Shown: positions 5,409 to 61,864 of the stretch, piece by piece
How positions within the stretch are numbered: position 1 is the first letter of the stretch
Layout: every line of letters starts with the position of its first letter
Source of the DNA: Phyllobates terribilis
Lineage: Eukaryota
DNA: 64,000 nucleotides
Direction: 5' to 3'
NCBI RefSeq assembly: GCF_046119375.1
Contig: NW_027362763.1
Coordinates: 781,076,001 to 781,140,000, forward strand
The notes under the pieces: generated by a model
The model's input: only the letters and a program-made list of their open reading frames with translations
The model's database searches: none
What the model was told of the DNA's origin: nothing
Position numbers and translations under genes: made by a program

Positions 5409-8400
5409 GAATACAGGTAATACACAAGAATACAGGTAATATACAAGAATACAGGTATTACACAGGAATACAGGTATTACACAGGAATGAATACAGGTAA
5501 TCTACAAGAATACAGGTATTACACAAGAATACAGGTAATCTACAAGAATACAGGTAGTACACAAGAATACAGGTAATATACAAGAATACAGGTAGTACAC
5601 AGAAATACAGGTAATCTACAAGAATACAGGTATTACACAAGAATACAGGTAATATACAAGAATACAGGTAGTACACAAGAATACATGTAATATACAAGAA
5701 TACAGGTAGTACACAGAAATACAGGTAATCTACAAGAATACAGGTATTACACAGGAATACAGGTACTATACAAGAATACAGGAAGTACACAGGAATACAG
5801 GTATTACACAGGAATGAATACAGGTAATCTACAAGAATACAGGTAGTACACAAGAATACAGGTAATATACAAGAATACAGGTAGTACACAAGAATACAGG
5901 TAATATGCAAGAATACAGGAAGTACACAGGAATACAGGTATTATACAAGAATACAGGTATTACACAAGAATACAGGTAATATACAAGAATACAGGTAGTA
6001 CACAAGAATACAGAAATACAGGTAATCTACAAGAATACAGGTATTACACAGGAATACAGGTAATATGCAAGAATACAGGAAGTACACAGGAATACAGGTA
6101 ATCTACAAGAATACAGGTATTACACAAGAATACAGGTAATATACAAGAATACAGGTAGTACACAAGAATACAGGTAATATACAAGAATACAGGTAGTACA
6201 CAAGAATACAGGTAATATACAAGAATACAGGTAGTACACAGAAATACAGGTAATCTACAAGAATACAGGTATTACACAGGAATACAGGTAATATACAAGA
6301 ATACAGGTAGTACACAAGAATACATGTAATCTACAAGAATACAGGTATTACACAGGAATACAGGTACTATACAAGAATACAGGAAGTACACAGGAATACA
6401 GGTATTACACAGGAATGAATACAGGTAATCTACAAGAATACAGGTAGTACACAAGAATACAGGTAATATACAAGAATACAGGTATTACACAGGAATACAG
6501 GTAATATGCAAGAATACAGGAAGTACACAGGAATACAGGTAATATACAAGAATACAGGTATTACACAAGAATACAGGTAATATACAAGAATACAGGTAGT
6601 ACACAAGAATACAGAAATACAGGTAATCTACAAGAATACAGGTATTACACAGGAATACAGGTAATCTACAAGAATACAGGTATTACACAAGAATACAGGT
6701 AATATACAAGAATACAGGTAGTACACAAGAATACAGGTAATATACAAGAATACAGGTAGTACACAAGAATACAGGTAATATACAAGAATACAGGTATTAC
6801 ACAAGAATACAGGTAATATACAAGAATACAGGTAGTACACAAGAATACAGAAATACAGGTAATCTACAAGAATACAGGTATTACACAGGAATACAGGTAA
6901 TCTACAAGAATACAGGTATTACACAAGAATACAGGTAATATACAAGAATACAGGTAGTACACAAGAATACAGGTAATATACAAGAATACAGGTAGTACAC
7001 AAGAATACAGGTAATATACAAGAATACAGGTAGTACACAGAAATACAGGTAATCTACAAGAATACAGGTATTACACAGGAATACAGGTAATATACAAGAA
7101 TACAGGTAGTACACAAGAATACAGGTAATATACAAGAATACAGGTAGTACACAAGAATACAGGTAATATACAAGAATACAGGTAGTACACAGAAATACAG
7201 GTAATCTACAAGAATACAGGTATTACACAGGAATACAGGTACTATACAAGAATACAGGAAGTGCACAGGAATACAGGTATTACACAGGAATGAATACAGG
7301 TAATCTACAAGAATACAGGTAGTACACAAGAATACAGGTAATATACAAGAATACAGGTATTACACAAGAATACAGGTAATATACAAGAATACAGGTATTA
7401 CACAGGAATACAGGTAATATACAAGAATACAGGAAGTACACAAGAATACAGGTAATCTACAAGAATACAGGTATTACACAAGAATACAGGTAATCTACAA
7501 GAATACAGGTAGTACACAAGAATACAGGTAATATACAAGAATACAGGTAGTACACAGAAATACAGGTAATCTACAAGAATACAGGTATTACACAGGAATA
7601 CAGGTAATATACAAGAATACAGGAAGTACACAGGAATACAGGTATTACACAGGAATGAATACAGGTAATCTACAAGAATACAGGTAGTACACAAGAATAC
7701 AGGTAATATACAAGAATACAGGTAGTACACAAGAATACAGGTAATATACAAGAATACAGGTATTACACAGGAATATAGGTAATATACAAGAATACAGGAA
7801 GTACACATGAATACAGGTATTACACAGGAATGAATACAGGTAATCTACAAGAATACAGGTAGTACACAAGAATACAGGTAATATACAAGAATACAGGTAG
7901 TACACAAGAATACAGGTAATATACAAGAATACAGGTATTACACAGGAATACAGGTATTACACAGGAATGAATACAGGTAATCTACAAGAATACAGGTATT
8001 ACACAAGAATACATGTAGTACACAAGAATACAGGTAGTACACAGGAATACAGGTAATATACAAGAATACAGGTAATATACAAGAATACAGGTATTACACA
8101 AGAATACAGGAAGTACACAGAAATACAGGTAATATACAAGAATACAGGTATTACACAGGAATACAGGTAATATACAAGAATACAGGAAGTACAGAAGAAT
8201 ACAGGTAGTACACAGGAATACAGGAAGTACACAGGAATACAGGTAATATACAAGAATACAGGTATTACACAGGAATACAGTTAGTACACAAGAATACAGG
8301 TAATATACAAGAATACAGGTATTACACAGGAATACAGGTAATCTACAAGAATACAGGTATTACACAAGAATACATGTAGTACACAAGAATACAGGTATTA

Positions 8401-11400
8401 CACAAGAATACATGTAGTACACAGAAATACAGGTAATATACAAGAATACAGGTATTACACAGGAGTACAGGTAATATACAAGAATACAGGTAGTACACAA
8501 GAATACAGGTAATATACAAGAATACAGGAAGTACACAGGAATACAGGTAGTACACAGGAATACAGGTAATCTACAAGAATACAGGTATTACAAAGGAATA
8601 CAGGTAATCTACAAGAATACAGGTATTACACAGGAATACAGGTCATATACAAGAATACAGGAAGTACACAAGAATACAGAGAGTACACAGGAATACAGGT
8701 ATTACACAGGAATACAAGTAATAAACAAGAATACAGGAAGTACAGAGGAATACAGGTAGTACACAATAATACAGGTATTACACAGGAGTACAGGTAATAT
8801 ACAAGAATACAGGTAGTACACAAGAATACAGGTAGTGCACAGGAATACGGGTAATATGCAAGAATACAGGAAATACACAGGAATACAGGTAGTACACAAG
8901 AATACAGGAAGTACACAGGAATACAGGTATTACACAGGAATACAGGTAATATACAAGAATAAGGAAGTACACAGGAATACAGGTATTACACAGGAATACA
9001 GGTAATATACAAGAATACAGGTATTACACAGGAATACAGGAAGTACACAGGAATACAGGTAATATACAAGAATAAGGAAGTACACAGGAATACAGGTATT
9101 ACACAGGAATACAGGAAATATACAAGAATACATCTATTACACAGGAATACAGGTATTACACAAGAATACAAGAAGAACACAAGAATACAGGAAGTGCACA
9201 AGAATACAGGAAGTACACAGGAGTACAGGTAATATACAAGAATACAGGAAGTACATAGGAATACAGGTAATACACAAGAATACAGATAGTACACAGGAAT
9301 ACAGGTATTACATAGGAATACAGGTAATATACAAGAATACAGGAAGTACACTAGAATACAGGTAGTACACAAGAATACAGGTATTACACAGGGATACAGG
9401 TAATATACAAGAATATAGGTAATCTACAAGAATACAGGAAGTACACAGGAATACAGGTAATATACAAGAATACAGGAAGTACACAGGAATGCAGGTATTA
9501 CACAGGAATACAGGTAATATACAAGAATACAAGAAGTACACAGGAATACAGGTATTACACAGGAATACAGGTAATATACAAGAATACAGGAAGTATACAA
9601 GAATACAGGTAGTACACAAGAATACAGGAATACAGGTAATATACAAGAATACAGGTAATATACAAGAATACAGGTATTACACAAGAATACAGGAAGTACA
9701 CAGAAATACAGGTAATATACAAGAATACAGGTATTACACAGGAATACAGGTACTATACAAGAATACAGGAAGTACACAGGAATACAGGTATTACACAGGA
9801 ATGAATACAGGTAATCTACAAGAACACAGGTAGTACACAAGAATACAGGTAATATACAAGAATACAGGTATTACACAGGAATACAGGTAATATGGAAGAA
9901 TACAGGAAGTACACAGGAATACAGGTAATCTACAAGAATACAGGTATTACACAAGAATACAGGTAATCTACAAGAATACAGGTAGTACACAAGAATACAG
10001 GTAATATACAAGAATACAGGTAGTACACAGAAATACAGGTAATCTACAAGAATACAGGTATTACACAGGAATACAGGTAATATACAAGAATACAGGAAGT
10101 ACACAGGAATACAGGTATTACACAGGAATGAATACAGGTAATCTACAAGAATACAGGTAGTACACAAGAATACAGGTAATATACAAGAATACAGGTAGTA
10201 CACAAGAATACAGGTAATATACAAGAATACAGGTATTACACAGGAATATAGGTAATATACAAGAATACAGGAAGTACACATGAATACAGGTATTACACAG
10301 GAATGAATACAGGTAATCTACAAGAATACAGGTAGTACACAAGAATACAGGTAATATACAAGAATACAGGTAGTACACAAGAATACAGGTAATATACAAG
10401 AATACAGGTATTACACAGGAATACAGGTATTACACAGGAATGAATACAGGTAATCTACAAGAATACAGGTATTACACAAGAATACATGTAGTACACAAGA
10501 ATACAGGTAGTACACAGGAATACAGGTAATATACAAGAATACAGGTATTACACAGGAGTACAGGTAATATACAAGAATACAGGTAGTACACAAGAATACA
10601 GGTAATATACAAGAATACAGGTATTACACAGGAATACAGGTATTACAGAGGAATACAGGTAATATACAAGAATACAGGTATTACACAAGAATACAGGAAG
10701 TACACAGAAATACAGGTAATATACAAGAATACAGGTATTACACAGGAATACAGGTAATATACAAGAATACAGGAAGTACAGAAGAATACAGGTAGTACAC
10801 AGGAATACAGGAAGTACACAGGAATACAGGTAATATACAAGAATACAGGTATTACACAGGAATACAGGTAGTACACAAGAATACAGGTAATATACAAGAA
10901 TACAGGTATTACACAGGAATACAGGTAATCTACAAGAATACAGGTATTACACAAGAATACATGTAGTACACAAGAATACAGGTATTACACAAGAATACAT
11001 GTAGTACACAGAAATACAGGTAATATACAAGAATACAGGTATTACACAGGAGTACAGGTAATATACAAGAATACAGGTAGTACACAAGAATACAGGTAAT
11101 ATACAAGAATACAGGAAGTACACAGGAATACAGGTAGTACACAGGAATACAGGTAATCTACAAGAATACAGGTATTACAAAGGAATACAGGTAATCTACA
11201 AGAATACAGGTATTACACAGGAATACAGGTCATATACAAGAATACAGGAAGTACACAAGAATACAGAGAGTACACAGGAATACAGGTATTACACAGGAAT
11301 ACAAGTAATAAACAAGAATACAGGAAGTACAGAGGAATACAGGTAGTACACAAGAATACAGGTATTACACAGGAGTACAGGTAATATACAAGAATACAGG

Positions 11401-14400
11401 TAGTACACAAGAATACAGGTAGTGCACAGGAATACGGGTAATATGCAAGAATACAGGAAATACACAGGAATACAGGTAGTACACAAGAATACAGGAAGTA
11501 CACAGGAATACAGGTATTACACAGGAATACAGGTAATATACAAGAATAAGGAAGTACACAGGAATACAGGTATTACACAGGAATACAGGTAATATACAAG
11601 AATACAGGTATTACACAGGAATACAGGTATTACACAGGAATACAGGAAGTACACAGGAATACAGGTAATATACAAGAATAAGGAAGTACACAGGAATACA
11701 GGTATTACACAGGAATACAGGAAATATACAAGAATACATCTATTACACAGGAATACAGGTATTACACAAGAATACAAGAAGAACACAAGAATACAGGAAG
11801 TGCACAAGAATACAGGAAGTACACAGGAGTACAGGTAATATACAAGAATACAGGAAGTACATAGGAATACAGGTAATACACAAGAATACAGATAGTACAC
11901 AGGAATACAGGTATTACATAGGAATACAGGTAATATACAAGAATACAGGAAGTACACTAGAATACAGGTAGTACACAAGAATACAGGTATTACACAGGGA
12001 TACAGGTAATATACAAGAATATAGGTAATCTACAAGAATACAGGAAGTACACAGGAATACAGGTAATATACAAGAATACAGGAAGTACACAGGAATGCAG
12101 GTATTACACAGGAATACAGGTAATATACAAGAATACAAGAAGTACACAGGAATACAGGTATTACACAGGAATACAGGTAATATACAAGAATACAGGAAGT
12201 ATACAAGAATACAGGTAGTACACAAGAATACAGGAATACAGGTAATATACAAGAATACAGGTAATATACAAGAATACAGGTATTACACAAGAATACAGGA
12301 AGTACACAGAAATACAGGTAATATACAAGAATACAGGTATTACACAGGAATACAGGTACTATACAAGAATACAGGAAGTACACAGGAATACAGGTATTAC
12401 ACAGGAATGAATACAGGTAATCTACAAGAACACAGGTAGTACACAAGAATACAGGTAATATACAAGAATACAGGTATTACACAGGAATACAGGTAATATG
12501 GAAGAATACAGGAAGTACACAGGAATACAGGTAATCTACAAGAATACAGGTATTACACAAGAATACAGGTAATATACAAGAATACAGGTAGTACACAAGA
12601 ATACAGGTAATATACAAGAATACAGGTAGTACACAAGAATACAGGTAATATACAAGAATACAGGTAGTACACAGAAATACAGGTAATCTACAAGAATACA
12701 GGTATTACACAGGAATACAGGTAATATACAAGAATACAGGTAGTACACAAGAATACAGGTAATATACAAGAATACAGGTAGTACACAAGAATACAGGTAA
12801 TATACAAGAATACGGGTAGTACACAGAAATACAGGTAATCTAGAAGAATACAGGTATTACACAAGAATACAGGTAATATACAAGAATACAGGTAGTACAC
12901 AAGAATACAGGTAATATACAAGAATACGGGTAGTACACAGAAATACAGGTAATCTACAAGAATACAGGTATTACACAGGAATACAGGTACTATACAAGAA
13001 TACAGGAAGTGCACAGGAATACAGGTATTACACAGGAATGAATACAGGTAATCTACAAGAATACAGGTAGTACACAAGAATACAGGTAATATACAAGAAT
13101 ACAGGTATTACACAAGAATACAGGTAATATACAAGAATACAGGTATTACACAGGAATACAGGTAATATACAAGAATACAGGAAGTACACAGGAATACAGG
13201 TAATCTACAAGAATACAGGTATTACACAAGAATACAGGTAATCTACAAGAATACAGGTAGTACACAAGAATACAGGTAATATACAAGAATACAGGTAGTA
13301 CACAGAAATACAGGTAATCTACAAGAATACAGGTATTACACAGGAATACAGGTACTATACAAGAATACAGGTAGTACACAGGAATACAGGTATTACACAG
13401 GAATGAATACAGGTAATCTACAAGAATACAGGTAGTACACAAGAATACAGGTAATATACAAGAATACAGGTAGTACACAAGAATACAGGTAATATACAAG
13501 AATACAGGTATTACACAGGAATATAGGTAATATACAAGAATACAGGAAGTACACAGGAATACAGGTATTACACAGGAATGAATACAGGTAATCTACAAGA
13601 ATACAGGTAGTACACAAGAATACAGGTAATATACAAGAATACAGGTAGTACACAAGAATACAGGTAATATACAAGAATACAGGTATTACACAGGAATATA
13701 GGTAATATACAAGAATACAGGAAGTACACAGGAATACAGGTATTACACAGGAATGAATACAGGTAATCTACAAGAATACAGGTAGTACACAAGAATACAG
13801 GTAATATACAAGAATACAGGTAGTACACAAGAATACAGGTAATATACAAGAATACAGGTATTACACAGGAATACAGGTATTACACAGGAATGAATACAGG
13901 TAATCTACAAGAATACAGGTATTACACAAGAAAACATGTAGTACACAAGAATACAGGTAGTACACAGGAATACAGGTAATATACAAGAATACAGGTATTA
14001 CACAGGAGTACAGGTAATATACAAGAATACAGGTATTACCAAGAATACAGGTAATATACAAGAATACAGGTATTACACAGGAATACAGGTATTACAGAGG
14101 AATACAGGTAATATACAAGAATACAGGTAATATACAAGAATACAGGTATTACACAAGAATACAGGAAGTACACAGAAATACAGGTAATATACAAGAATAC
14201 AGGTATTACACAGGAATACAGGTAATATACAAGAATACAGGAAGTACAGAAGAATACAGGTAGTACACAGGAATACAGGAAGTACACAGGAATACAGGTA
14301 ATATACAAGAATACAGGTATTACACAGGAATACAGGTAGTACACAAGAATACAGGTAATATACAAGAATACAGGTATTACACAGGAATACAGGTAATCTA

Positions 14401-17400
14401 CAAGAATACAGGTATTACACAAGAATACATGTAGTACACAAGAATACAGGTATTACACAAGAATACATGTAGTACACAGAAATACAGGTAATATACAAGA
14501 ATACAGGTATTACACAGGAATACAGGTAATCTACAAGAATACAGGTATTACACAAGAATACAGGTAATATACAAGAATACAGGTAGTACACAAGAATACA
14601 GGTAATATACAAGAATACAGGAAGTACACAGGAATACAGGTAGTACACAGGAATACAGGTAATCTACAAGAATACAGGAAGTACACAAGAATACAGAGAG
14701 TACACAGGAATACAGGTATTACACAGGAATACAAGTAATAAACAAGAATACAGGAAGTACAGAGGAATACAGGTAGTACACAAGAATACAGGTATTACAC
14801 AGGAGTACAGGTAATATACAAGAATACAGGTAGTACACAAGAATACAGGTAGTGCACAGGAATACGGGTAATATGCAAGAATACAGGTAATCTACAAGAA
14901 TACAGGAAATACACAGGAATACAGGTAGTACACAAGAATACAGGAAGTACACAGGAATACAGGTATTACACAGGAATACAGGTAATATACAAGAATAAGG
15001 AAGTACACAGGAATACAGGTATTACACAGGAATACAGGTAATATACAAGAATACAGGTATTACACAGGAATACAGGTATTACACAGGAATACAGGAAGTA
15101 CACAGGAATACAGGAAATATACAAGAATACATCTATTACACAGGAATACAGGTATTACACAAGAATACAAGAAGAACACAAGAATACAGGAAGTGCACAA
15201 GAATACAGGAAGTACACAGGAATACAGGTATTACACAGGAATATAGGTAATATACAAGAATACAGGAAGTACATAGGAATACAGGTAATACACAAGAATA
15301 CAGATAGTACACAGGAATACAGGTATTACATAGGAATACAGGTAATATACAAGAATACAGGAAGTACACAGGAATACAGGTAGTATACAAGAATACAGGA
15401 ATACAGGTAATATACAAGAATACAGGAAGTACACTAGAATACAGGTAGTACACAAGAATACAGGTATTACACAGGGATACAGGTAATATACAAGAATATA
15501 GGTAATCTACAAGAATACAGGAAGTACACAGGAATACAGGTAATATACAAGAATACAGGAAGTACACAGGAATGCAGGTATTACACAGGAATACAGGTAA
15601 TATACAAGAATACAAGAAGTACACAGGAATACATGTATTACACAGGAATACAGGTAATATACAAGAATACAGGAAGTATACAAGAATACAGGTAGTACAC
15701 AAGAATACAGGAATACAGGTAATATACAAGAATACAGGAATTACACAGGAATACAGGTAATATGCAAGAATACAAGAAGTACACAAGAATACAGGTAATA
15801 TACAAGAATGCAGGTAATATACAAGAATACAGGTATTACACAGGAATACAGGTAATATACAATGTAGCGCCGGCGTCCCTGCCCTCTGCTAGGCAGGGAC
15901 GCTGTTCCCCTCACCTCTCTGCTCCGTGCCCGGCGTCCTCCTTCCGCTCTGCTGGCAGCGCGCGCTCCTTCCCGGCCACTGTGCTTAGGGCGCGCGCGCG
16001 CTCTCCCTCCCTCTTAAAGGGGCCGCGCGCGCCGTCCTAAGGAGTCCCCGGCCAATGGCCGGAGGACTTCACCATATATAAGGCACCTCCTCCAAAATGG
16101 AGGTGCCCGAGCAATGTTGTTGCACTGTTCACTACTCTGCTTCAGCCCTCAGGTCCCGTTGCCAGTTACCTGCCAGATACCTGCCAGATTCCTGCCAGCT
16201 TGCTGTCTTATTCCTGCCTGATTATCTGCTACCTGCCTGCTAGTCTGAGGTCCGACGGTCTGCCTTACTACTCCTGTCAGTCTGTCTAAGGACCAGCCTG
16301 TCCGCTCACCTGGGAGCGCACTTCAGCCACCTGCCTGCTTGCCTGAGGTCCGACGGTCTGCCTTCCAACTCCTGTCAGTCTGTGTATGGACCAGCTTGCC
16401 TGCTCACCTGGGAGCACACATCTGCTACCTGCCTGCTAGCCTACCTGGAGGCTCCGCCGTCACGTGCTGTGACCACCTGCCTGTCCAGTGACTCCTGCCC
16501 GCTCACCTGGGAGCGCTCATCTGCTGCCTGTCTGCTAGCCTACCTGGAGGCTCTGCCGTCACGTGCTGTGACCACCCGCCTGTCCAGAGACTTCTGCCCG
16601 CTCACCTGGGAGCGCTCATCTGCCGCCTGTCTGTTGGTCTTCCTGGAGGCTCCGCCGTCACATGCTGTGACCACCCGTTCATCCAGAGACTCTCGCCTGC
16701 TCACCTGGGAGCTCACGTCTATCATCAGCCGCCACAGGTCGTACCAACCCTTTACCCAGAGACTGCCCCGGTCACTTGCCGTGACCATCTGCCCGTTCAT
16801 TGAGAGACTGCCCCGGTCACTTGCCGTGACCATCTGCCCGTTCATTCAGAGACTGCCCCGGTCACTTGCCGTGACCATCTGCCCGTTCATTCAGAGACTG
16901 CCCCGGTCACTTGCCGTGACCATCTGCCCGTTCATCCAGAGACTGCCCCGGTCACTTGCCGTGACCTCCAGCCCGTTCACTCAGAGACTGTCCCGGTCAC
17001 CTGCTGTGACTTCCTGCCCGTCTTCCCTGGTCGCCACCCGCTCCCTTACAAGGACCGCCCCCTTGTATAGTAGCTCAGAGGTTCCGCCTCCCAGACCCGT
17101 TACATACAAGAATACAAGAAGTACACAAGAATACAGGAAGTGCACAAAAATACAAGAAGTACACAGGAATACAGGTAATATACAAGAATACAGGAAGTAC
17201 ACAGGAATACAGGTAATATACAAGAATACAGGTAGTACACAAGAATACAGGAAGTACACAGGAATACAGGTAATATACAAGAATACAGGTAATATACAAG
17301 AATACAGGTATTACACAGGAATACAGGTAATATACAAGAATACAGCAAGTACACAAGAATACAGATAGTACACAGGAATGCAGGTAATATACAAGAATAC

Positions 17401-19488
17401 AGGAAGTACACAAGAATACAGGTAGTACACAAGAATACAGGAAGTACACAGGAATACAGGTATTACACAGGAATACAGGTAATATACAAGAATACATGTA
17501 TTACATAGGAATACAGGTAATATACAAGAATACGGGAAGTACACAAGAATACAGGTAGTACACAAGAATACAGGAAGTACACAGGAATACAGGTATTACA
17601 CAGGAATACAGGTAATATACAAGAATACAGGAAGTACACAGGAATACAGGTAATATACAAGAATACAGGTAGTACACAAGAATACAGGTAATATACAAGA
17701 ATACAAGAAGTACACAAGAATACAGGAAGTGCACAAGAATACAGGAAGTACACAGGAGTACAGGTAATATACAAGAATACAGGAAGTACACAGGAATACT
17801 GGTAATATACAAGAATACAGGAAGTACACAGGAATACAGGTAATATACAGGAATACATGTAGTACACAAGAATACAGGTAGTACACAAGAATACAGGTAT
17901 TACTCAGGAATACAGGTAATATACAAGAATACAGGTAATCTACAAGAATACAGGAAGTACACAGGAATACAGGTAATATACAAGAATATAGGAAGTACAC
18001 AGGAATACAGGTATTACACAGGAATACAGGTAGTACACAGAAATACAGGTATTACACAGGAATACAGGTAATCTACAAGAATACAGGAAGTACACAAGAA
18101 TACAGGTAGTACACAAGAATACAGGTATTACACAGGAATACAGGTAATATGCAAGAATACAGGTATTACACAAGAATACAGGTAGTACACAAGAATACAG
18201 GTATTACACAGAAATACAGTTATTACACAGGAATACAGGTAGTTTATAGGAATACAGGCAATACACAGTAATACAGGTAGTACACAGGAATACAGGTAGT
18301 ACACAATAATACAGGTAGTACACAGAAATACAGATAGTACATAGGAATACAGGCAATCCACATTAATACGGGTAGTACACAAGAATACAGGTAGTACATA
18401 GGAATACAGGCAATACACATTAATACAGGTAGTACACAGAAATACAGGTAGTGCACAAGAATACAGGTAGTACACAGATGTACAGGTAGTGCACAGGAAT
18501 ACAGGTAGTACACAGAAATACAGGTAGTACACAGGAATACAGTTAGTACACAATAATACAAGAAGTACCCAGAAATACAGGTAGTACCCAGAAATACAGG
18601 TAGTACACAGAATTACAGGTAGTACATAGAAATACAGGTAGTACATAGAAATACAGGTAGTACACAGGAATACCGGTAGTACACAGGAGTACAGTTAGTA
18701 CACAGGAATACAATGGGTACATAGGAATACATGTAGTACACAGGAATACATGTAGTACACAGGAATACAGGTAGTACAAAGAAATACAGGTAGTACATAG
18801 GAATACAGGTAGTACACAGAAATACAGGTAGTACACAGAAATACATGTAGTACACAGGAATACAGTTAGTACACAGTAATACAAGAAGTACCCAAGAATA
18901 CAGGAAGTACACAGTAATACAAGTAGTGCACTGAAATACAGGTAGTACACAGAAATTCAGGTAGTGCACAGAAATACAGGTAGTACACAGAAATACAGGT
19001 AGTACATAGAAATACAGGTAGTACACAAGAATACTGCTAATACACAAGAATACAGGTCGTACATAGGAATACAGGTAGTGCACAGGAATACAGGTAGTAC
19101 ACAAGAATACTGGTAGTACATAGAAATACAGGTAGTGCACAAGAATATAGGTAGTGCACAGAAATACAGATAGTACATAGAAATACAGGTAGTGCACAAG
19201 AATACTGGTAATACACAAGAATAGAGGTCATACATAGGAATACAGGTAGTGCACAGGAATACAGGTAGTGCACAGGAATATAGGTAGTACACAGGAATGC
19301 AGGTAGCACAAAAGAATACAGGTAATACACAGGAATCTACGTAGTACACAAGACTACAGGAAGTACACAGGAGCACATGTAGTACATAAGAATATAGTTA
19401 GTACTAAGGAATACAAGTAGTGCACAGGAATACAGGTAATACACAGGCATACAAATAGTACACAGGAATACAGGTAGTACACAGGAAT
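5409..19488. repeat. ~14-kb tandem satellite of ~19-bp units (gaatacaggtaatatacaa / gaatacaggtagtacacaa / gaatacaggtattacacag / gaatacaggaagtacacag), interrupted by a solo LTR
   Basis: Directly visible; roughly 650-700 units, with units more diverged after ~18250. Confidence 0.98.
15863..17104 (+). mobile_element. Solo LTR (Gypsy/chromovirus-like), 1242 bp, inserted in the satellite
   Basis: TGTAGCG...CGTTACA termini; 5-bp TSD TACAA (15858-15862 / 17105-17109); CCAAT near 16052; TATATAA at 16075-16081; internal 45-bp tandem repeat (~5-6 copies from 16761) and ~110-bp repeats. Confidence 0.9.
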
Positions 19489-31059: not shown

Positions 31060-31949
31060 TGTGCTTGTGTTACTTCTAATAGTTGCTGAATGCTTTTAAA
31101 GCAACAGCACTACTTCTGCATGTCACACTCTGCTACAGCACTACTTCTGCATGTCACAACAATACAAACTTATCTCTCACCCACAAGGCCCTCTACACTT
31201 CTGCACAAACCTATATTTCCTCCCTCATCTTTGTCTATCACCCTACCCGTGCTCTCCGCAACTAAAACTAACATCCTCCATAATCCGAACCACCTACCTC
31301 CATCTCTAAGACTTCTTTCTTGCTGCACCAGTTTTATGGATGCACTACCCCGGACAATCTGAATAATACCTAGGCCTGTCTACAGAGATGAGTTTTTAAA
31401 GTACGTTTAAAAAAGTGGGGGCTATCACCTCAATTCACCAACCTAATGCTCCCCTGTTCTGTCTTTTTAAATTTTACTCAGAACCTGGTCCCTCCTTTTC
31501 TGTGTCCACTTCCTCCTTGCACCCAATAGCACTTGGCAACTGTACCTAGACAGATGCTGGCTGGTGACTGGATCATGCAGTTTATTTAAAATGCCCTATT
31601 TATTATAATGATGGCTGGACCATATATTACAAGCACTTCTACCTATAGTCTCCTCTCTATTTCCTTATAGATTGTAAGCTTGCGAGCAGGGCCCTCACTC
31701 CTCCTGTAACTGTTGAACTGTGTTACTTTGTGTAACATACCTGGCGGCGTCCTTGCATGGTGGTCCATCTCCCACTGTGCAAGAGCGCGCACTTGATCTC
31801 CAGTCCAGAATGTCTCTCTGGCTTCCCTCCTTGCTGTCTGTTTGTCTGTTTTGGCTGCATAGGGCGACGCCCGCTGAACTTCCTGTTTCTTGTACCTGCT
31901 GCGGACACGCCCCTGTTGCACCTTCAGCCTATTGCTGTCCATCTTTGGG

Positions 31950-31989
31950 TATTTATACCGCCTTCTTCCTCAAGATGGCGCCTGAGCAT
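31950..31989 (+). promoter_or_regulatory. LTR TATA-like box (tatttata) with predicted transcription start 30 nt downstream (gcctgagcat)
   Basis: TATTTATA at 31950-31957. The start sequence is complementary to the post-LTR primer position. The same TATA/-30/GCCYGAGCA layout occurs in the solo LTR at 16075/16105. Confidence 0.6.
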
Positions 31990-32499
31990 TGTGTCCTGTC
32001 AGTTGGCTTTTTGTCTCTGATGTGCCAGGTCCTTTCCTGTTTTCCTGCCTGTTCTCCAGTTCTGTGTCTGAACTGTGGTCTGTTCTTGTGAGCACGCTTC
32101 TAGCCTGTTCTTTCGCCTTCTAGGGGCTGTATTCCTAGATCTGCCTGTCTGTGCCTTGCGGTATCTGTTCCCGTCTGAACAGAGTCCTGTTTGTGTCCCA
32201 GCCTTGCTGTATTTGTTCCCGTTCCTCGGTTCCCAGTTGTCTGTGCCTCGTTTCTACTTTAGCCTTTTCTCCCTTTTCCCTCTATGTCTGTTTTCTGCGT
32301 CTTTCTGCAGAGTCTGAACTTGCTCCTAAATTCCTTCTCGTCGTCTCTGTACCTCTGTTGTGAATTTAGTGTACGCTCGCTACTTCTTTGTAAGTACTTT
32401 GTGTGCTTCTGGTTCTGCCTTTCCTTCTCCGTCTGCTCTTTGTGAACAGAGTCCTATCCCCTTGCCTTGTCTCGTTCGCCGCTCCGGCGGTTCTAGCCG

Positions 32500-33200
32500 C
32501 TCTGCGGTTTCCGCTCTGCTTCTGCCTCGCCTACCGCTCTGCGGTTTCCGCTCTGCTCCTGCCTTGTTTACCGCTCTGCGGTTTCCGCTCTGCTCCTGCT
32601 TAGCTTGCCGCTCTTGCGGTTTCTGCTCTGCTCCTGCCTTGTTTACCGCTCTGCGGTTTCCGCTCTGCTCCTGCTTAGCTTGCCGCTCTTGCGGTTTCTG
32701 CTCTGCTCCTGCCTTGTTTACCGCTCTGCGGTTTCCGCTCTGCTCCTGCTTTGCTTGCCGCTCTTGCGGTTTCTGCTCTGCTCCTGCCTTGGTTGCCGCT
32801 CTGCGGTTTCCGCTCTGCTCCTGCCTTGTTTACCACTCTGCGGTTTCCGCTCTGCTCCTGCCTTGTTTGCCGCTCTGCGGTTTCCGCTCTGCTCCTGCCT
32901 TGTTTGCCGCTCTGCGGTTTCCGCTCTGCTCCTGCCTTGTTTGCCGCTCTGCGGTTTCCGCTCTGCTGCGGCCTTGTTTGCCGCTCTGCGGTTTCCGCTC
33001 TGCTGCGGCCTTGTTTGCCGCTCTGCGGTTTCCGCTCTGCCGCGGCCTTGTTTGCCGCTCTGCGGTTTCCGCTCTGCTGCGGCCTTGTTTGCCGCTCTGC
33101 GGTTTCCGCTCTGCTGCGGCCTTCTTAGCTGCTCTGCGGTTTCCGCTCTGCTCCTGCCTTGTTTACTGCTCTTGCGGTTTCCACTCTGCTCTTGCCTTGC
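32500..33200. repeat. 37-bp tandem repeat array inside the 5' LTR (gctctgcggtttccgctctgctgcggccttgtttgcc)
   Basis: Directly visible. Confidence 0.95.
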
Positions 33201-33825
33201 TTGCCGCTCCTGCGGTTTCTGCTCTGCATCTGCTCGCTGCTCCGGCAGTCCTGTCCTGCTCTGCTTCTGCTCGCTGCTCCGGCAGCCCCGTCCTGCTCTG
33301 CATCTGCTCGCTGCTCCGGCAGTCCTGTCCTGCTCTGCTTGTGCTCGCTGCTCCGGCAGTCCCGTCCTGCTCTGCTCTTGCCCACCGCTTCGGGCGTTCC
33401 CTCTCTGCTGTGTTTGGCTACCGCATCTGCGGTTCTGTTTCTGTGTCCCAGTCTGTACTGGGTCTTGTCCTCTCTGTGCTCCAGCCCGTCCTTTCGGCCA
33501 GTACCTCCCTGCCTGCATATTCGCCTGTATCCACCCGTCTGCATACCTGCCGTGTTTGCTTATATCCACCAGTCTGTGCCTGCCTAGCCTGCCTGTTCCA
33601 GTAATCCCTGTGTGGGTCAACCCCCGTGTCCGGAGTTTGACCTGGAGTAGCACCTGGTCCCTCTGCCCGGTTTCTCCCTGGTGCACTGGCGTCGTATGCC
33701 GTCGTGCCACCTTGGTCGGATCGGCCAGATACTTAGTCACGCCCCTCCAGGCACTCTCCGGTCCATGGTCCAGTGGAACCACTACTCCCGCACACGCCAG
33801 TCAGTCCGGGCGTGTGCATAACAGC

Positions 33826-33835
33826 ATGCTCAGGC
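33826..33835 (+). promoter_or_regulatory. Putative self-priming primer-binding site
   Basis: atgctcaggc starts 2 nt after the 5' LTR and is the exact reverse complement of 31980-31989. No TGG tRNA-type PBS is present. Confidence 0.7.
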
Positions 33836-33964
33836 CATGGTTCCCGTTGAGCCCCACGGCCTTCGCTCTCTGAGAAGTTTTCCAGCGAATACATGCATTA
33901 AAAATAAATAAATACATTTTTTTTTTTCTCAGCTGAGTTCCAGGCGAATTACGCACCCGTCCAG

Positions 33965-36370
33965 ATGGATCTATCTGCTCTCGTTCCTGCGGATCCGCCA
34001 CGTTACTATGGGGATCCAAGACAAAGTCGTGCATTTGTGGAGCAATGCATGCTACACTTCAAGTTCTACCCTCTATGTTTTCCCACCAATCGGGTTAAGG
34101 TGGCATTCATTATGTCTTACCTGGCGGGTGATGCCTTGGAATGGATCAACCCCCTATATGAAACACAGGATCCGATCCTCCTGGACCTAATGGCCTTCCT
34201 GGTGGCCTTTCTAATGGTCTTCGATGATCCTAACCCGGAGGCTCCTGCTGAAGCTTCACTTCCCAATATCCCGGAGCAGCCCCAATGGGTAATGTGTGTG
34301 GGTAGCGCAATAGTCCTCCAGCCCAATGAGACTACTGCCCACCCAGAATCCTCACAGGGTGACTACGCTTTCCGGAATACTTCTCCCAACCTCAAGAGGC
34401 AGTCCAGACGTGCTAAATGTAGAGGCAAGCCGTCACGCCAGGGTCTGTCCTCCCTGAGACCTCCTGACCCCAACCTTGAAGTCCCTACTGAAGCTTCATC
34501 TCCCTGTATCCCGGAGAAGCCCCAACGGGTAATGTGCGTGGGTAGTGCACCAGTTCTCCTGCCCGAAGAGACTTCTGCCCATCCAGACTCCACACAGGAG
34601 AACTTCCTGCACCCGGCATCAGATGCTTCACCCACTTTAACCGGTGTGCATGTCCAAGGATGCTCCAAAGCTGTGGTTACCTCTGAGTCTGTGCACCTCT
34701 ACTACCTGGCGGAGGACCCCCTGTTGCCTCCTGAATCCTCCGGGATACCACTCGATGACAAATGGAGAGAGACTTCTCTACACTCGGTACTCGATACTTT
34801 GTCCGCTTCGTCCTGTGAGCCTGACAATGGGTACCCCAAAGTGGTAGTTACCCCCGAGTCTCTACACCCCTCCGACCAGGCGGAGGACCTCCAGTTGTCT
34901 CCAGAACCCTTCGGGGTGCTACCTGGTAGCGAAAGGACAGAGACTCTCCTATACTCTGTACCTGATACCTCGCTCGCTTCGTCCAGTGAGTCCAACCTAG
35001 TGTACTCCGAAGCAGAGGTTACTCCCGAGTCTCTACACCCCTCCGACCAGGCGGAGGACCTCCAGTTGTCTCCAGAACCCTACGGGGTGCTACCTGGTAG
35101 CGAAAGGACAGAGACTCTCCTATACTCTGTACCTGATACCTCGCTCGCTTCGTCCAGTGAGTCCAACCTAGTGTACTCCGAAGCAGAGGTTACTCCCGAG
35201 TCTCTACACCCCTCCGACCAGGCGGAGGACCTCCAGTTGTCTCCAGAACCCTTCGGGGTGCCACCTGGTGGTGAATGGACAGAGACTTTCCTATATCCTG
35301 GATCTGATACCTCGCTTGCTTCGTCCAGTGAGTCCGACCTTGTGTACTCTGAAGCAGAGGTTACCCTTGAGTCTCTACACCCCTCTGACCAGGCGGAGGA
35401 CCTCCAGTTGTCTCCAGAACCCTTCGGGGTGCCACCTGGTGGTGAATGGACAGAGACTTTCCTATACTCGGTACCCGATACCTCGCCTGCTTCCTCCAGT
35501 GAGTCCGACCTAGTGTACTCTGAAGCAGATGTTTTCTCTGAGCCTCTGCACTCTTCTGACCCGGCGGAGGACCTCCAGTTGTTTCCTGAATTCTCCGGGG
35601 TACCACCAGATAACAAAGAGACAGTGACTTTTCCTCATTATGTACCTGATAACCCATCTATTTCTTCCTGTGAGCTTGACAAGATGTACCTCGAAGCAGA
35701 GATTACCCCCAAGTCTCTGTCCCCCTCCAACCCGGTGAAGGACTTCCAGTTGTCTCCTGTACCCTCTGGGGTGCCACCTGAAAATATGTGGAGAGAGATT
35801 TCCTTGTGTGCTGTTCCTGGTACTCCACCCGTTTCGTCTGTTGCTAAGGATGGCTGGATAGGAGGTAGCATCCTAGTTAACCAGATGAGATCAATTTTTC
35901 CTGTGGACAGTGGAAGTGATCTCCTTGAAGTGAACGACTGGTCCTCGAATTCCCTGCGGAAGATTCTGGCAGGCCTGAAGAAGAGGGGGCGTAAGGGGGG
36001 GGGGGGTACTGTAACATACCTGGTGGCGTCCTTGCATGGTGGTCCATCTCCCACTGTGCAAGAGCGCGCACTTGATCTCCAGTCCAGAATGTCTCTCTGG
36101 CTTCCCTCCTTGCTGTCCGTTTGTCTGTTTTGGCTGCATAGGGCGACGCCCGCTGAACTTCCTGTTTCTTGTACCTGCTGCGGACACGCCCCTGTTGCAC
36201 CTTCAGCCTATTGCTGTCCATCTTTGGGTATTTATACCACCTTCTTCCTCAAGATGGCGCCTGAGCATTGTGTCCTGTCAGTTGGCTTTTTGTCTCTGAT
36301 GTGCCAGGTCCTTTCCTGTTTTCCTGCCTGTTCTCCAGTTCTTTGTCTGAACTGTGGTCTGTTCTTGTGA
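33965..36370 (+). CDS. 801-aa ORF: N-terminal sushi/RTL-like Gag (capsid) fragment + acidic Ser/Pro-rich 57-aa repeats, reading into the 3' LTR
   Basis: PPRYYGDPRQSRAFVEQCMLHF...FPTNRVKVAFIMSYLAGDALEWINPLY resembles the Gag domain of sushi-derived elements (PEG10/RTL/LDOC1 type). Contains a 171-bp coding repeat. No protease, RT, RNase H or integrase motifs. No stops over 2.4 kb. Confidence 0.75.
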   Translation: MDLSALVPADPPRYYGDPRQSRAFVEQCMLHFKFYPLCFPTNRVKVAFIMSYLAGDALEWINPLYETQDPILLDLMAFLVAFLMVFDDPNPEAPAEASLPNIPEQPQWVMCVGSAIVLQPNETTAHPESSQGDYAFRNTSPNLKRQSRRAKCRGKPSRQGLSSLRPPDPNLEVPTEASSPCIPEKPQRVMCVGSAPVLLPEETSAHPDSTQENFLHPASDASPTLTGVHVQGCSKAVVTSESVHLYYLAEDPLLPPESSGIPLDDKWRETSLHSVLDTLSASSCEPDNGYPKVVVTPESLHPSDQAEDLQLSPEPFGVLPGSERTETLLYSVPDTSLASSSESNLVYSEAEVTPESLHPSDQAEDLQLSPEPYGVLPGSERTETLLYSVPDTSLASSSESNLVYSEAEVTPESLHPSDQAEDLQLSPEPFGVPPGGEWTETFLYPGSDTSLASSSESDLVYSEAEVTLESLHPSDQAEDLQLSPEPFGVPPGGEWTETFLYSVPDTSPASSSESDLVYSEADVFSEPLHSSDPAEDLQLFPEFSGVPPDNKETVTFPHYVPDNPSISSCELDKMYLEAEITPKSLSPSNPVKDFQLSPVPSGVPPENMWREISLCAVPGTPPVSSVAKDGWIGGSILVNQMRSIFPVDSGSDLLEVNDWSSNSLRKILAGLKKRGRKGGGGTVTYLVASLHGGPSPTVQERALDLQSRMSLWLPSLLSVCLFWLHRATPAELPVSCTCCGHAPVAPSAYCCPSLGIYTTFFLKMAPEHCVLSVGFLSLMCQVLSCFPACSPVLCLNCGLFL

Positions 36371-36779
36371 ACACGCTTCTAGCCTGTTCTTTCGCCTTCT
36401 AGGGGCTGTATTCCTAGATCTGCCTGTCTGTGCCTTGCGGTATCTGTTCCCATCTGAACAGAGTCCTGTTTGTGTCCCAGCCTTGCTGTATTTGTTCCCG
36501 TTCCTCGGTTCCCAGTTGTCTGTGCCTCGTTTCTACTTTAGCCTTTTCTCCCTTTTCCCTCTATGTCTGTTTTCTGCGTCTTTCTGCAGAGTCTGAACTT
36601 GCTCCTAAATTCCTTCTCGTCGTCTCTGTACCTCTGTTGTGAATTTAGTGTACGCTCGCTACTTCTTTGTAAGTACTTTGTGTGCTTCTGGTTCTGCCTT
36701 TCCTTCTCCGTCTGTTCTTTGTGAACAGAGTCCTATCCCCTTGCCTTGTCTCGTTCGCCGCTCCGGCGGTTCTAGCCGC

Positions 36780-37760
36780 TCTGCGGTTTCCGCTCTGCTT
36801 CTGCCTCGCCTACCGCTCTGCGGTTTCCGCTCTGCTCCTGCCTTGTTTACCGCTCTGCGGTTTCCGCTCTGCTCCTGCTTAGCTTGCCGCTCTTTCGGTT
36901 TCTGCTCTGCTCCTGCCTTGTTTACCGCTCTGCAGTTTCCGCTCTGCTCCTGCTTAGCTTGCCGCTCTTGCGGTTTCTGCTCTGCTCCTGCCTTGTTTAC
37001 CGCTCTGCGGTTTCCGCTCTGCTCCTGCTTTGCTTGCCGCTCTTGCGGTTTCTGCTCTGCTCCTGCCTTGGTTGCCGCTCTGCGGTTTCCGCTCTGCTCC
37101 TGCCTTCTTAGCCGCTCTGCGGTTTCCGCTCTGCTCCTGCCTTGTTTACCGCTCTGCGGTTTCCGCTCTGCTCCTGCCTTGTTTACCGCTCTGAGGTTTC
37201 CGCTCTGCTCCTGCCTTGTTTACCGCTCTGCGGTTTCCGCTCTGCTCCTGCCATGTTTGCCGCTCTGCGGTTTCCGCTCTGCTGCGGCCTTGTTTGCCGC
37301 TCTGCGGTTTCCGCTCTGCTGCGACCTTGTTTGCCGCTCTGCGGTTTCCGCTCTGCTGCGGCCTTGTTTGCCGCTCTGCGGTTTCCGCTCTGCTGCGGCC
37401 TTGTTTGCCGCTCTGCGGTTTCCGCTCTGCTGTGGCCTTGTTTGCCGCTCTGCGGTTTCCGCTCTGCTGCGGCCTTGTTTGCCGCTCTGCGGTTTCCGCT
37501 CTGCTGCGGCCTTGTTTGCCGCTCTGCTGCCGCCTTGTTTGCCGCTCTGCGGTTTCCGCTCTGCTGCGGCCTTGTTTGCCGCTCTGCGGTTTCCGCTCTG
37601 CTGCGGCCTTGTTTGCCGCTCTGCGGTTTCCGCTCTGCTGCGGCCTTGTTTGCCGCTCTGCGGTTTCCGCTCTGCTGCGGCCTTCTTAGCCGCTCTGCGG
37701 TTTCCGCTCTGCTCCTGCCTTGTTTACCACTCTTGCGGTTTCCACTCTGCTCTTGCCTTG
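36780..37760. repeat. 37-bp tandem repeat array inside the 3' LTR (longer than the 5' copy)
   Basis: The 3' LTR is 263 bp longer than the 5' LTR, mostly from extra units. Confidence 0.95.
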
Positions 37761-38748
37761 CTTGCCGCTCCTGCGGTTTCTGCTCTGCATCTGCTCGCTG
37801 CTCCGGCAGTCCTGTCCTGCTCTGCTTCTGCCCGCTGCTCCGGCAGCCCCGTCCTGCTCTGCATCTGCTCCGGCAGTCCTGTCCTGCTCTGCTTGTGCTC
37901 GCTGCTTCGGCAGTCCCGTCCTGCTCTGCTCTTGCCCACCGCTTCGGGCGTTCCCTCTCTGCTGTGTTTGGCTACCGCATCTGCGGTTCTGTTTCTGTGT
38001 CCCAGTCTGTACTGGGTCTTGTCCTCTCTGTGCTCCAGCCCGTCCTTTCGGCCAGTACCTCCCTGCCTGCATATTCGCCTGTATCCACCTGCCGTGTTTG
38101 CTTATATCCACCAGTCTGTGCCAGCCTAGCCTGCCTGTTCCAGTAATCCCTGTGTGGGTCAACCCCCGTGTCCGGAGTTTGACCTGGAGTAGCACCTGGC
38201 CCCTCTGCCCGGTTTCTCCCTGGTGCACTGGCGTCGTATGCCGTCGTGCCACCTTGGTCGGATCGGCCAGATACTTAGTCACGCCCCTCCAAGCACTCTC
38301 CGGTCCATGGTCCAGTGGAACCACTACTCCTGCACACGCCAGTCAGTCCGGGCGTGTGCATAACACTTTGTGATGTCTTTATTGTTTGTACATGTCTCCA
38401 CCTAATTGTAAAGCGCTGCGGAATTTGTTGGCTTTGTATAAATAAAATTATTATTATTATATGCCAAATTATAATTTTGGTCAGTCCTGGAAGTCACAGT
38501 GTACTGTGGTTCTGTCTGTTGCTCTAAGGAGTGCTTCCCTCCACTAAGCTCTGAGCCATTTTCATGGCACAGGTTTAGTACATTTATTTTGTTTATCCTT
38601 TTTATTTTATGTGATTGTAAATACTGCATTGTTTTGTCCATTTTGTAACATCTTTGTATATTTTTTATAAACACTGCCTACGTTTTCCTGATAAAATATA
38701 TAAAATTGAATAGCTTCATTCTTCTTGCTCTATAAACCGCATCCTGAA

Positions 38749-45788: not shown

Positions 45789-47527
45789 CAGGGCCGGCGT
45801 CAGCACCCGGGCAAATGCCGGGGCTCTGAGCAGGCAGAGGGGCCCACTGGCGGTCGCGCACCCCGCTGGGCTATGGGCGGAGGAGAGTGGTGTCAGCGCC
45901 CGCCCTTCTCCGCCGCTTGCTCAGGGCCCCGGCAGCTGGATACTTACCTCTCCCCGTGCCTCCGCAGATCAGCTGTCTTCCTGCTCTGCGCTCCCTGTGA
46001 CGTCTCAGGTCAGAGGGCGCGGTGACGTCTTTACACCGCGCCCTCCCCTGAGCCGTCACAGGGAGCGCTGAGCGGGAAGAAACGACAACGCTGGAGTTCG
46101 GAGCCGAGCAGCGAGCGGCGGGCAGCAGGTGAGGAGAAGGGAGGTGAGTATTTGATTATTTTTTTTTTTTTAATGTATGGAGGCATGGGGCATTATAAAG
46201 AGGGGAGGGGGGGCATCCTGCTTGGGGCATTATAAAGAGGAGGGGTGACAGCCTGCATGGGGCATTATAAGGTGGGGAACAGCCTGCATGGGGCATTATA
46301 AAGAGGGGGGGATTCCTGCTTGGGGCATTATAATGAGGAGGGGTGACAGCCTGCATGGGGCATTATAAGGTGGGGACCAGCCTGCATGGGGCATTATAAA
46401 GAGGGGGGGATTCCTGCTTGGGGCATTATAATGAGGAGGGGTGACAGCCTGCATGGGGCATTATAAGGTGGGGACCAGCATGCATGGGGCATTATAAGGT
46501 GGGGAACAGCCTGCACGGGGCATTATAAAGAGAGGGGGGGACATCCTGCATGGGGCATTATAAAGAGGAGGGGTGACAGCCTGCATGGGGCAGTATAAAG
46601 AGGAGGGGTGACAGCCTGCATGGGGCAGTATAAAGAGGAGGGGTGACAGCCTGCATGGAGCATTATAAAGAGGAGGGGTGACAGCCTGCATGGGGCATTA
46701 TAAAGAGGGGGGGTGACAGCCTGCATTGGGCAGTATAAAGAGGAGGGGTGACAGCCTGCATGGGGCAGTATAAAGAGGAGGGGTGACAGCCTGCATGGGG
46801 CATTATAAAGAGGGGGGGCAGCCTGTATGGGGCATTATGTGGGGGGTAACAGCCTGCATGGAGCATTAAAAGGGGGGGGCCTGTATGGGGCATTATGTGG
46901 GGGGTAACAGCCTGCATGGAGCATTATAAGGGGGGGACAGCCTGTATGGGGCATTATGTGGGGGGTAACAGCCTGCATGCAGCATTATATGGGGACCGGT
47001 ATCCTGTATGGAGCGTTATATGGGGGCCAGTATCCTGTATGGAGCGTTATATGGGGGCCAGTATTCTGTATGGAGCCTTATATGGGGGCCAGTATTCCGT
47101 ATGGGGTCTTATATGGGGGCCAGTATTCCGTATGGGGCCTTATATGGGGGCAAGTATTCCATATGGGGGCAAGTATTCCGTATGGGGCCTTATATGGGGG
47201 CAAGTATTCCGTATGGGGCCTTATATGGGGGCCAGTATTCCGTATGAAGCGTTATATGGGGGCCAGTATTCCGTATGGGCGTTATATGGGGACCAGTATT
47301 CCGTATGGAGCCTTATATGGGGGCCACTATTCTGTGTGGAGCGATTCACCGGTTTCTGAGCTATTGTAGAATTTACAATAGATATCACTCATGAAGTGAA
47401 ATCTTTGCATTGTACTATATATATATATTTCTCCGCCGTATCTCTGCATCATGAATCGTGGTATGTGTTAAAGGGGCCCACTGAGACTCTTTCGCCCGGG
47501 GCCCAGAAAAACCTGGAGCCGGCCCTG
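45789..47527. mobile_element. Second non-autonomous hAT nested inside the first
   Basis: TIR cagggccggc / gccggccctg; perfect 8-bp TSD CCGCTGAC (45781-45788 / 47528-47535). Confidence 0.92.
46180..47340. repeat. G-rich minisatellites inside the nested hAT (31-36-bp ggggcattataaagaggaggggtgacagcctgcat, then ~31-bp tatgggggccagtattccgtatggggcctta)
   Basis: Directly visible. Confidence 0.93.
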
Positions 47528-57332: not shown

Positions 57333-58118
57333 CCTTGCAGTGCTAGTGCACAGTTCCCTGGGCTGTTCACCGCTGTCTGCAAGGTCTCTGTGTGTGAGTG
57401 CAGCTCACCCTGTAGTGTGTGCTTCAGCCACGTCTGGTTATAGTGCACTCAGTGTGTGTCACTGCCTCATACATTGTCCTTTTTTGCCAATTCATAATTT
57501 TTCCTGATATCTCCTATTAGTGTGGTGGTTCCATCCGTATTCAGCTAAATTGGTTCCAAACACACTATATAGGAGTAGATAGAGAAATTTTTTTGGTCTT
57601 GCAGCGCTAGTGCACAGTGCTCTGCATCTGTACTGTTCACCGCTGTCTGCAAGGTCTGGTGTGTGAGTGCAGCTCACCCTGTAGTGTGTGCTTCAACCAC
57701 GTCTGGTTGTAGTGCACTCAGTGTGTGTCACTGCCTCATACATTGTCCTTTTTTGCCAATTCATAATTTTTCCTGATATCTCCTATTAGTGTGGTGGTTC
57801 CATCAGTATTCAGCTAAATTGGTTCCAAACACACTATATAGGAGTAGATAGAGAAATTTTTTTGGTCTTGCAGCGCTAGTGCACAGTGCTCTGCATCTGC
57901 ACTGTTCACCGCTGTCTGCAAGGTCTGGTGTGTGAGTGCAGCTCACCCTGTAGTGTGTGCTTCAACCACGTCTGGTTGTAGTGCACTCAGTGTGTGTCAC
58001 TGCCTCATACATTGTCCTTTTTTGCCAATTCATAATTTTTCCTGATTTCTCCTATTAGTGTGGTGGTTCCATCTGTATTCAGCTAAATTGGTTCCAAACA
58101 CACTATATAGGAGTAGTT
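57333..58118. repeat. 269-bp tandem repeat, ~3 copies, in the hAT 5' region
   Basis: The landmark tcagctaaat recurs at 57541, 57810 and 58079. Confidence 0.93.
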
Positions 58119-58477
58119 AGAGGAGCCTTTCTGCAGCATTGGGCCCTGCAGCCCCAGCCAGATTAGTATTAGCCTATTTTTTGTAGCCTCATCTATTGCA
58201 TTGTAGGTTACCTTCCTACATTGTAATAGCTACAAAAAGTTTGTGATACTATCGTTATTACATCTTTAGGCACATCCAGTGTCTTTTTGTGACAAAAAAA
58301 ACCTAAATAAAGTTCACCAAACACTCCACTTTACAGTTGTGTAGGCCACATTAGCTCATATTAAAGTCTAGTCCACACTTTATAAAATTAGTGTTTCTTA
58401 TACCTGTTAGCAGCTGTTCAGGAATAAGCACACTAAGCCCTTAGTACTTTTCTGCCTATCTTTATCAGTCTACCAAG

Positions 58478-61400: not shown

Positions 61401-61864
61401 CAGTGCGTCGAGGCAGTGGAGGAAGCTCTGCACAAAGAGGGAGCAGAAGCAGCGCCTCAGCACAAGGCAAGACCAGAATGGCCGAAATGTGGCAAAGTTT
61501 TGTGTCCCCGCCGCCACAAATGTCTACACCATCACAGACGGCTCCAGTCAGCAGGAGGCAACGTTTCTGTCAGTTGGTGACAGACTACATGTCTTGCCCT
61601 CTTAGTGTACTCCCAGACGGCTCTTCTCCCTTCAAGTTTTGGGTCTGTAAGCTGGATACATGGCCAGAGCTTAGTCAGTATGCATTGGAGGTGCTAGCTT
61701 GCCCTGCTGCTAGTGTATTATCGGAACGCGTCTTTAGTGCCGCAGGTGGTGTACTAACAGAACGTCGCATGCGACTATCCTCCGATAACGTTGACTGGCT
61801 TACTTTCTTCAAAATGAACAAGGCCTGGATCTCTCATAAATTTGCCAGTCCTCTTCCAGAATAA
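58478..61864 (+). CDS. hAT transposase (BED zinc finger, DDE core, C-terminal dimerisation domain); 1128 codons with one in-frame TGA at 59183-59185, 867 aa from ATG 59261
   Basis: AWSFF...CKLC...NMWKHVRTKH (BED), LTTDAWTS, VVCDNGRN, CLAHVLNLVV, PTRWNST, WPELSQYALEVLACPAASVLSERVFS. The two track ORFs are in the same frame, 13 codons apart. Confidence 0.9.

Follow-up and report, generated by a model that had tools for sequence, protein, structure and literature searches.

How does a retrotransposon without a tRNA primer binding site (PBS) start its reverse transcription, and can it do so when the two strands of the presumed priming duplex lie 1.85 kb apart? This question is raised by an LTR element in a 64,000-nt stretch of the Phyllobates terribilis genome (the window hereafter, meaning the whole stretch that was analysed, numbered from its first letter). 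A sequence-only reading had proposed that the element primes from the first nucleotides of its own RNA, as Tf1/sushi elements do. In their accessible parts, earlier papers describe self-priming as typical of Tf1/sushi elements, from fungal to vertebrate ones (10.1101/2022.12.06.519325; PMC6317226; PMC4600332), with experimental proof in fission yeast and by inference only in vertebrates; elements of this type are reported there to be abundant in frogs (PMC4131045). As we argue below, the locus is very probably a non-autonomous, gag-only Tf1/sushi-type element whose RNA starts at ~31980 and primes itself, its first 10 nt pairing with a PBS 1.85 kb downstream.

Anatomy of a pol-less element

The whole element (LTR, internal region, LTR; 31731-38365) measures 6.6 kb and is bounded by a 5-bp target duplication (Table 1). 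Its U3 is 249 bp long and 1846 nt separate primer start from PBS start, with the 37-bp arrays in between, which matches the ~250 bp of U3 and ~1.85 kb of R plus U5 originally estimated. The two LTRs differ at 7 positions across their first 765 nt and also in the length of their arrays.

Table 1. Positions of element features in the window
Feature	Position	Strand	Remarks
Left target-site duplication CTTTG	31726..31730	+	identical 5-mer at 38366-38370
5' LTR	31731..33823	+	2093 bp, TGTAACA...ATAACA, 7.3% A
TATA box TATTTATA	31950..31957	+	related families: TATA-like box at -28 to -36
Predicted self-primer GCCTGAGCAT	31980..31989	+	putative first 10 nt of RNA
Predicted 5' splice donor TTT/GTAAGT	32390..32395	+	inside LTR
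37-bp tandem arrays	32496..33376	+	inside R-U5; 19.6 + 4.3 copies
U5 arm GGAACCA	33775..33781	+	predicted U5-leader stem; coordinates via position ruler
U5 hairpin	33790..33817	+	9-bp stem, directly 5' of LTR end; coordinates via position ruler
Internal region	33824-36009		between the two LTRs
PBS ATGCTCAGGC	33826..33835	+	2 nt past LTR end; complements 31980-31989
Leader arm TGGTTCC	33838..33844	+	predicted U5-leader stem; overlaps ancestral gag start
Predicted 3' splice acceptor	33917..33931	+	poly-T, CAG; ATTAAA 33897 and AATAAA 33903 upstream
801-codon ORF	33965..36370	+	capsid N-terminal half (DUF4939) fused to acidic Ser/Pro-rich tail
Polypurine tract, then TAC	35991..36009	+
3' LTR	36010..38365	+	2356 bp, array longer than in 5' LTR
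Right target-site duplication CTTTG	38366..38370	+

The PBS is the exact reverse complement of the primer candidate over exactly 10 bp, with no extension on either side; it begins 2 nt past the terminal CA of the 5' LTR, and the candidate lies 30 nt downstream of the TATA box, measured from its first T, start to start. The exact complementarity of the two 10-mers and the 30-nt distance, both claimed by the sequence-only reading, are thus borne out, and the TATA spacing points to an RNA start at 31980. Each LTR holds a single copy of the primer 10-mer (31980, 36259), and the 64-kb window a single copy of its complement; the chance expectation of an exact 10-mer match in the LTR, given its composition, is 0.0007, or 0.004 if six offsets are allowed. 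The further claim that a tRNA PBS is missing also stands, in that no TGG is found at offsets 0-5 and the only one within 40 nt after the LTR sits at offset 14. In the accessible text of an earlier survey, self-priming is predicted where a complementarity of at least 10 bp starts 0-5 bp past the 5' LTR (PMC6317226); applied here as at least 10 bp at offset 0-5, to the element's own LTR and not to a tRNA 3' end, this yields 10 bp at offset 2.

At the start of the ORF, DUF4939 is recovered with an E-value of 1.2e-6 and 28.8 bits, just below the cut-off of 29. The tail carries 57-aa acidic repeats, with a reading frame that extends into the 3' LTR. Pol families were not found in the ORF by domain search and, because pol is absent, we class the element as a non-autonomous derivative and not as an autonomous member. 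Of 31 copies, 29 keep the frame open over 450 codons; dN/dS across its first 90 codons is ~0.37 (250 non-independent pairs); judged by its codons, the half-capsid ORF is under purifying selection, and conservation and dN/dS together suggest that it is translated.

Across the 10.6-Gb host genome, the junction pattern of the family returns 9,380 matches versus 0 for a reversed control, with the exact PBS present in 97/100 among the junction matches listed. Since several copies have LTR pairs that are 99.6-100% identical, the family appears to have moved recently. What occupies the locus is a young Tf1/sushi-type LTR retrotransposon that lacks pol and belongs to a very abundant family (~9,000 junctions).

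Some further observations concern the family and its surroundings. Tandem copies of the form LTR-internal-LTR-internal-LTR recur (directly in L204, inferred from repeats in L139, L149 and L155), and four loci on different small contigs (L202, L203, L210 and L211) share the target duplication ACCAT, consistent with one insertion multiplied through a larger duplication or through assembly. Abutting the predicted RNA start is AAGATGGCG (31972-31980), which we take to be a YY1-type motif; in the nearest pol-coding relatives this site reads AAAATGGAGG. Elsewhere, the window holds ~13 kb of 19-bp satellite (5409-15862 and 17106-19488), inside which sits a sister-family solo LTR (15863-17104, TACAA duplicated on both sides) with GCCCGAGCA at 16105, 30 nt below TATATAA. 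There are also further tandem arrays of 31-35, 269 and 203 bp (46183-47343, 57363-58122 and 61929-64000), a 358-codon Tc1/Sleeping Beauty-like transposase frame (1366-2442) and an open frame of 892 codons that combines a BED zinc finger with an hAT dimerisation domain (59186-61864), apparently an intact hAT transposase.

Covariation of primer and PBS among families

If the two 10-mers pair, related families should have changed them in concert, a check that the sequence-only reading had itself suggested. Seven PBS types are found in the genome, each complementary to its own LTR ~30 nt below a TATA-like box, which lies at -28 to -36 above the primer wherever the search pattern detected one. The PBS types ATGCTCAGGC, ATACTCAGGC, ATACTCTAGC, ATACTCAAGC, ATACTCCAGC and ATACACAAGC have a 10-bp complement in their own LTR, the primers GCCTGAGCAT, GCCTGAGTAT, GCTAGAGTAT, GCTTGAGTAT, GCTGGAGTAT and GCTTGTGTAT matching over 10 bp at offset 2, and the pair ATGCTCGGGC / ATGCACAGGC has a 9-bp complement, with primers GCCCGAGCA and GCCTGTGCA at offset 3. 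Among 71 loci, collected with search patterns derived from PBS types already seen and hence a sample biased to this architecture and no unbiased census, the 62 with a gag match complement their own PBS over 9 nt exactly in 51 cases, with one mismatch in 8 and with two in 3; loci without a gag match do so exactly in 2/9. When 10 nt are demanded, 18 of 30 pattern matches are exact versus 7 of 752 control comparisons, in which the PBS came from another locus and had a different sequence. Primer-PBS pairing is thus conserved by compensatory change among families in the same genome.

Members of the family keep the 10-mer unaltered at 40 of 41 loci (20 unselected copies, 20 chosen for likeness to the focal copy, four of which represent one insertion, and the focal copy itself), the exception being L148, where the LTR is truncated. 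The spacer to the TATA box, by comparison, varies at nearly every column, and the 10-mer is kept although subfamily LTRs are only 70-90% alike.

What company does the focal element keep? In a capsid tree of 47 rows, 7 of them focal-type, built from elements of this genome only and without named references, the focal lineage, on a long branch flagged by the program, joins two older, mostly broken pol-coding 9-bp families with support of 100/100. This supports a grouping with chromodomain-bearing Tf1/sushi relatives and, along with the covariation, the earlier assignment of the signal to the Tf1/sushi type. Its closest relatives with pol are old and no longer intact, and no young pol-coding family with the exact PBS was found among 32 matches (25 + 5 inspected), those inspected with ATGCTCAGGC being variants of the pol-less family. 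An autonomous relative, L052, encodes Gag, PR, RT, RH, IN and chromodomain in a single 1499-aa ORF between near-identical LTRs, and its type of primer, GCCTGAGTAT, differs by one base from the focal primer. This young autonomous family is a candidate helper.

Loop closure and rival routes to priming

Loops in the family measure 1158-2295 nt (median 1832), apart from one of 2718 nt with an A-rich insertion, versus 192-931 nt in other families (exact-match, pol-coding relatives). The R-U5 of Tf1 is roughly 170 nt long. The focal loop exceeds those of all 41 other-family gag-linked loci examined, and in the nearest relatives R-U5 already contains short tandem repeats. The description of the loop as unusually long therefore holds relative to kin, but a long loop is normal for this family with its thousands of copies, which occupies the upper end of a gradual series, 0.19 to 2.3 kb, within the genome.

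Would such a loop close? In the focal copy the predicted duplex probability is 0.003, and the duplex is missing from the minimum free energy (MFE) structure; five of five further copies of the family, whose loops span 1167-1890 nt, reach a probability of 0.89-0.99. The MFE structure includes the duplex in 17 of 18 unselected copies and 8 of the 20 closest ones, together 25/38, and since the folding models close the loop in most copies, length looks to be no barrier. Note, however, that the folding test discriminates poorly and that the models cannot decide single cases: even among short-loop relatives the duplex is favoured in 4/10 and fails in 6/10. Single shuffles of the loops keep the duplex in 12/18 versus 17/18 for native sequence, so that a special loop shape bringing the ends together is not shown by this comparison. 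We also rejected the idea that closure is favoured by an A-poor loop: the duplex survived in 2/12 dinucleotide-shuffled versions of the focal loop versus 10/12 base-balanced random loops. We read the models as suggesting that closing 2 kb would be thermodynamically ordinary and that the loop needs no special design.

The 'pretzel'-type flanking stems known from Tf1 present a mixed picture. An extension helix onto the LTR-terminal ACA is found in 13/13 cases tested. The U5-leader stem beats shuffles (at most 4/200) in 6/11 other-family loci and does no better than shuffles in the focal copy (123/200) or in L140 (82/200), so these stems are predicted to be strong in six of the 11 other-family loci and weak in the focal copy. 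The 7 bp of the U5-leader stem show a two-sided swap, reading GGTTCCA/TGGAACC in the nearest relatives and GGAACCA/TGGTTCC in the focal element.

In the mechanism that we favour, the RNA would begin at ~31980 and its first 10 nt would pair with the downstream PBS. A reverse transcriptase provided in trans would use its RNase H to cleave behind nucleotide 10 and would then elongate the resulting 3' end, both by analogy with Tf1; RNA start at the primer, duplex, RNase H cleavage and priming are all taken over from that element, as described in the accessible parts of the literature (10.1101/2022.12.06.519325, PMC4600332). The dinucleotide trimmed by integrase would derive from the two bases that separate the PBS from the LTR end. 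R-U5 has grown by tandem-repeat expansion and, because primer and PBS form the outermost helix, closing the whole domain, the expanded part would merely be looped out. The unspliced RNA would be the template, and a predicted spliced RNA, from which 32390 to 33931 and with them the PBS are removed, would be the half-capsid mRNA.

The same sequence signal could, however, serve another geometry. Imagine that the PBS pairs in trans with the 5' end of a co-packaged second RNA, or with a primer derived from a helper RNA or from the spliced RNA, so that the 1.85-kb loop is never closed. LTR elements package two RNAs, and the spliced RNA would retain the 10-mer and not the PBS; the autonomous-family primer GCCTGAGTAT could pair with the focal PBS through a G-U pair; and the cis duplex is predicted neither in the focal copy nor in 12 of 20 close copies. 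Covariation cannot separate cis from trans pairing. Intramolecular closure predicted in nearly all unselected copies argues against priming in trans, which we regard as unlikely, if worth bearing in mind.

Two other explanations fare worse. Priming by a tRNA or tRNA fragment, for instance at the TGG found at offset 14, would leave the 10-nt complementarity as a structural stem. This TGG, however, represents the former gag start codon and is not the same in relatives, offsets 0-5 have none, only 2 nt separate the 10-mer from the end of the LTR, and the longest complement to a tRNA, in a comparison that covered only tRNA-Lys(TTT) genes, is 6 nt and lies 4 nt from the 3' end. Because seven pairs that covary cannot be accounted for by one unchanging tRNA, we consider tRNA priming very improbable. 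That the match is a chance occurrence, or a relic without present function in a pol-less family, is hardly credible: although the family is young, leaving little time for decay, and its closest pol-coding relatives are old and broken, far less than one match is expected by chance (0.0007-0.004), the 10-mer persists in subfamilies with diverged LTRs, and LTR pairs that are 99.9-100% identical imply recent transposition, which requires a primer. Invariance against a diverged flank has already largely refuted the relic reading.

A predicted intron, known systems and significance

Self-priming in cis, as favoured here, would operate on an RNA that may have a second fate. A TTT/GTRAGT-type donor (GTGAGT and GTAAGT forms) is found in R-U5 in 37 of 40 family loci, three being without, versus a chance expectation of 0.25 per LTR; L217 and L219 read GCAAGT at this position, possibly a GC-type donor or a point mutation. 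A pyrimidine-tract YAG acceptor follows at ~108 nt from the LTR end; it is present in 38 of 40 loci and varies almost only among pyrimidines. The predicted intron (32390-33931) would take out the array and the PBS, together with five of the seven upstream ATGs. No comparable donor was found in the eight nearest pol-coding relatives checked, where gag starts directly after the PBS. A genome-wide search for the junction motif recovered no spliced DNA copies, which fits a PBS-less RNA unable to retrotranspose and equally fits an absence of splicing. The ATTAAA and AATAAA beside the acceptor offer a rival reading of this stretch, as a putative internal poly(A) site.

Sushi training LTRs have a mean length of 572 bp and AATAAA near their 3' end, according to the accessible text of PMC3601003; in the focal LTR, no AATAAA-type hexamer (or listed variant) was found below the TATA box, that is, in R-U5. 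Since the LTR is without such a hexamer, nearly the whole of R-U5 may be terminally redundant. Tentatively, and at rather less than an even chance, we propose that a splice switch is new in the pol-less lineage: an LTR-internal intron reaching past the PBS would divide transcripts into a self-priming genome, with a looped-out, repeat-filled leader of 1-2.3 kb, and a PBS-less half-capsid mRNA, and the spliced RNA could donate primers in trans. Foamy and delta-retroviruses have splice donors in R. Narrow search phrases, which make for weak evidence, turned up no paper on an LTR-internal intron that removes the PBS.

With Tf1/Tf2 (S. pombe), Tj1, Tosmo1-3, Tcry1 and the vertebrate V-clade (Sushi-ichi, Amn-ichi/ni/san), the focal element shares a primer at the predicted RNA 5' end with a complementary PBS just past the 5' LTR; with the Tf1/sushi group it also shares the DUF4939 capsid, the 5-bp target duplication and the chromodomain integrase (in its relatives). 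The 'pretzel'-type flanking duplexes outlined in the available part of 10.1101/2022.12.06.519325 have a partial counterpart in this genome, the U5-leader stem of the focal copy being no better than shuffles. It departs from that group in a tandem-repeat-filled R-U5 of 1.2-2.3 kb versus 0.19-0.93 kb in pol-coding relatives of this genome, in the lack of pol and in the intron predicted across the PBS. Plant TR-GAG elements, as far as the accessible text goes, likewise have two LTRs along with PBS, PPT and 5-bp TSD, and their only ORF is gag-like, PR, RT, RH and IN being absent; TR-GAG1 has ~485-bp LTRs, a tRNA-Leu PBS and less than 4 kb in total (PMC4350172). Unlike them, the focal element is from an animal, exceeds that length at 6.6 kb, is of the self-priming type and retains only the N-terminal capsid half. 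For plant Tcn1 chromoviruses and TAR copia elements, the same survey criterion predicts self-priming in 83% and 89%, respectively; unlike the focal element, both are autonomous (PMC6317226). BARE1, in the part of the source available, keeps separate RNA pools for translation and reverse transcription and a spliced gag-only RNA, as is predicted here, but splices that RNA from a single gag-pol ORF, whereas the predicted focal intron would begin within the LTR and excise the PBS itself (PMC3735527). A literature search largely without subscription papers found no description of a kilobase self-priming loop or of a PBS-removing intron.

The mechanism, then, is a known one and no new priming mechanism; what is new is a long-loop, pol-less and probably spliced variant of it. 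The genome provides a natural covariation series along with a ten-fold range of loop lengths. Given the very high copy number, RNA start, splice junction and cDNA primer should be easy to seek in ordinary sequencing data. The range of loops suggests that self-priming frees R-U5 to expand, and that ~9,000 copies of a parasitic element have spread with a loop of 1-2 kb.
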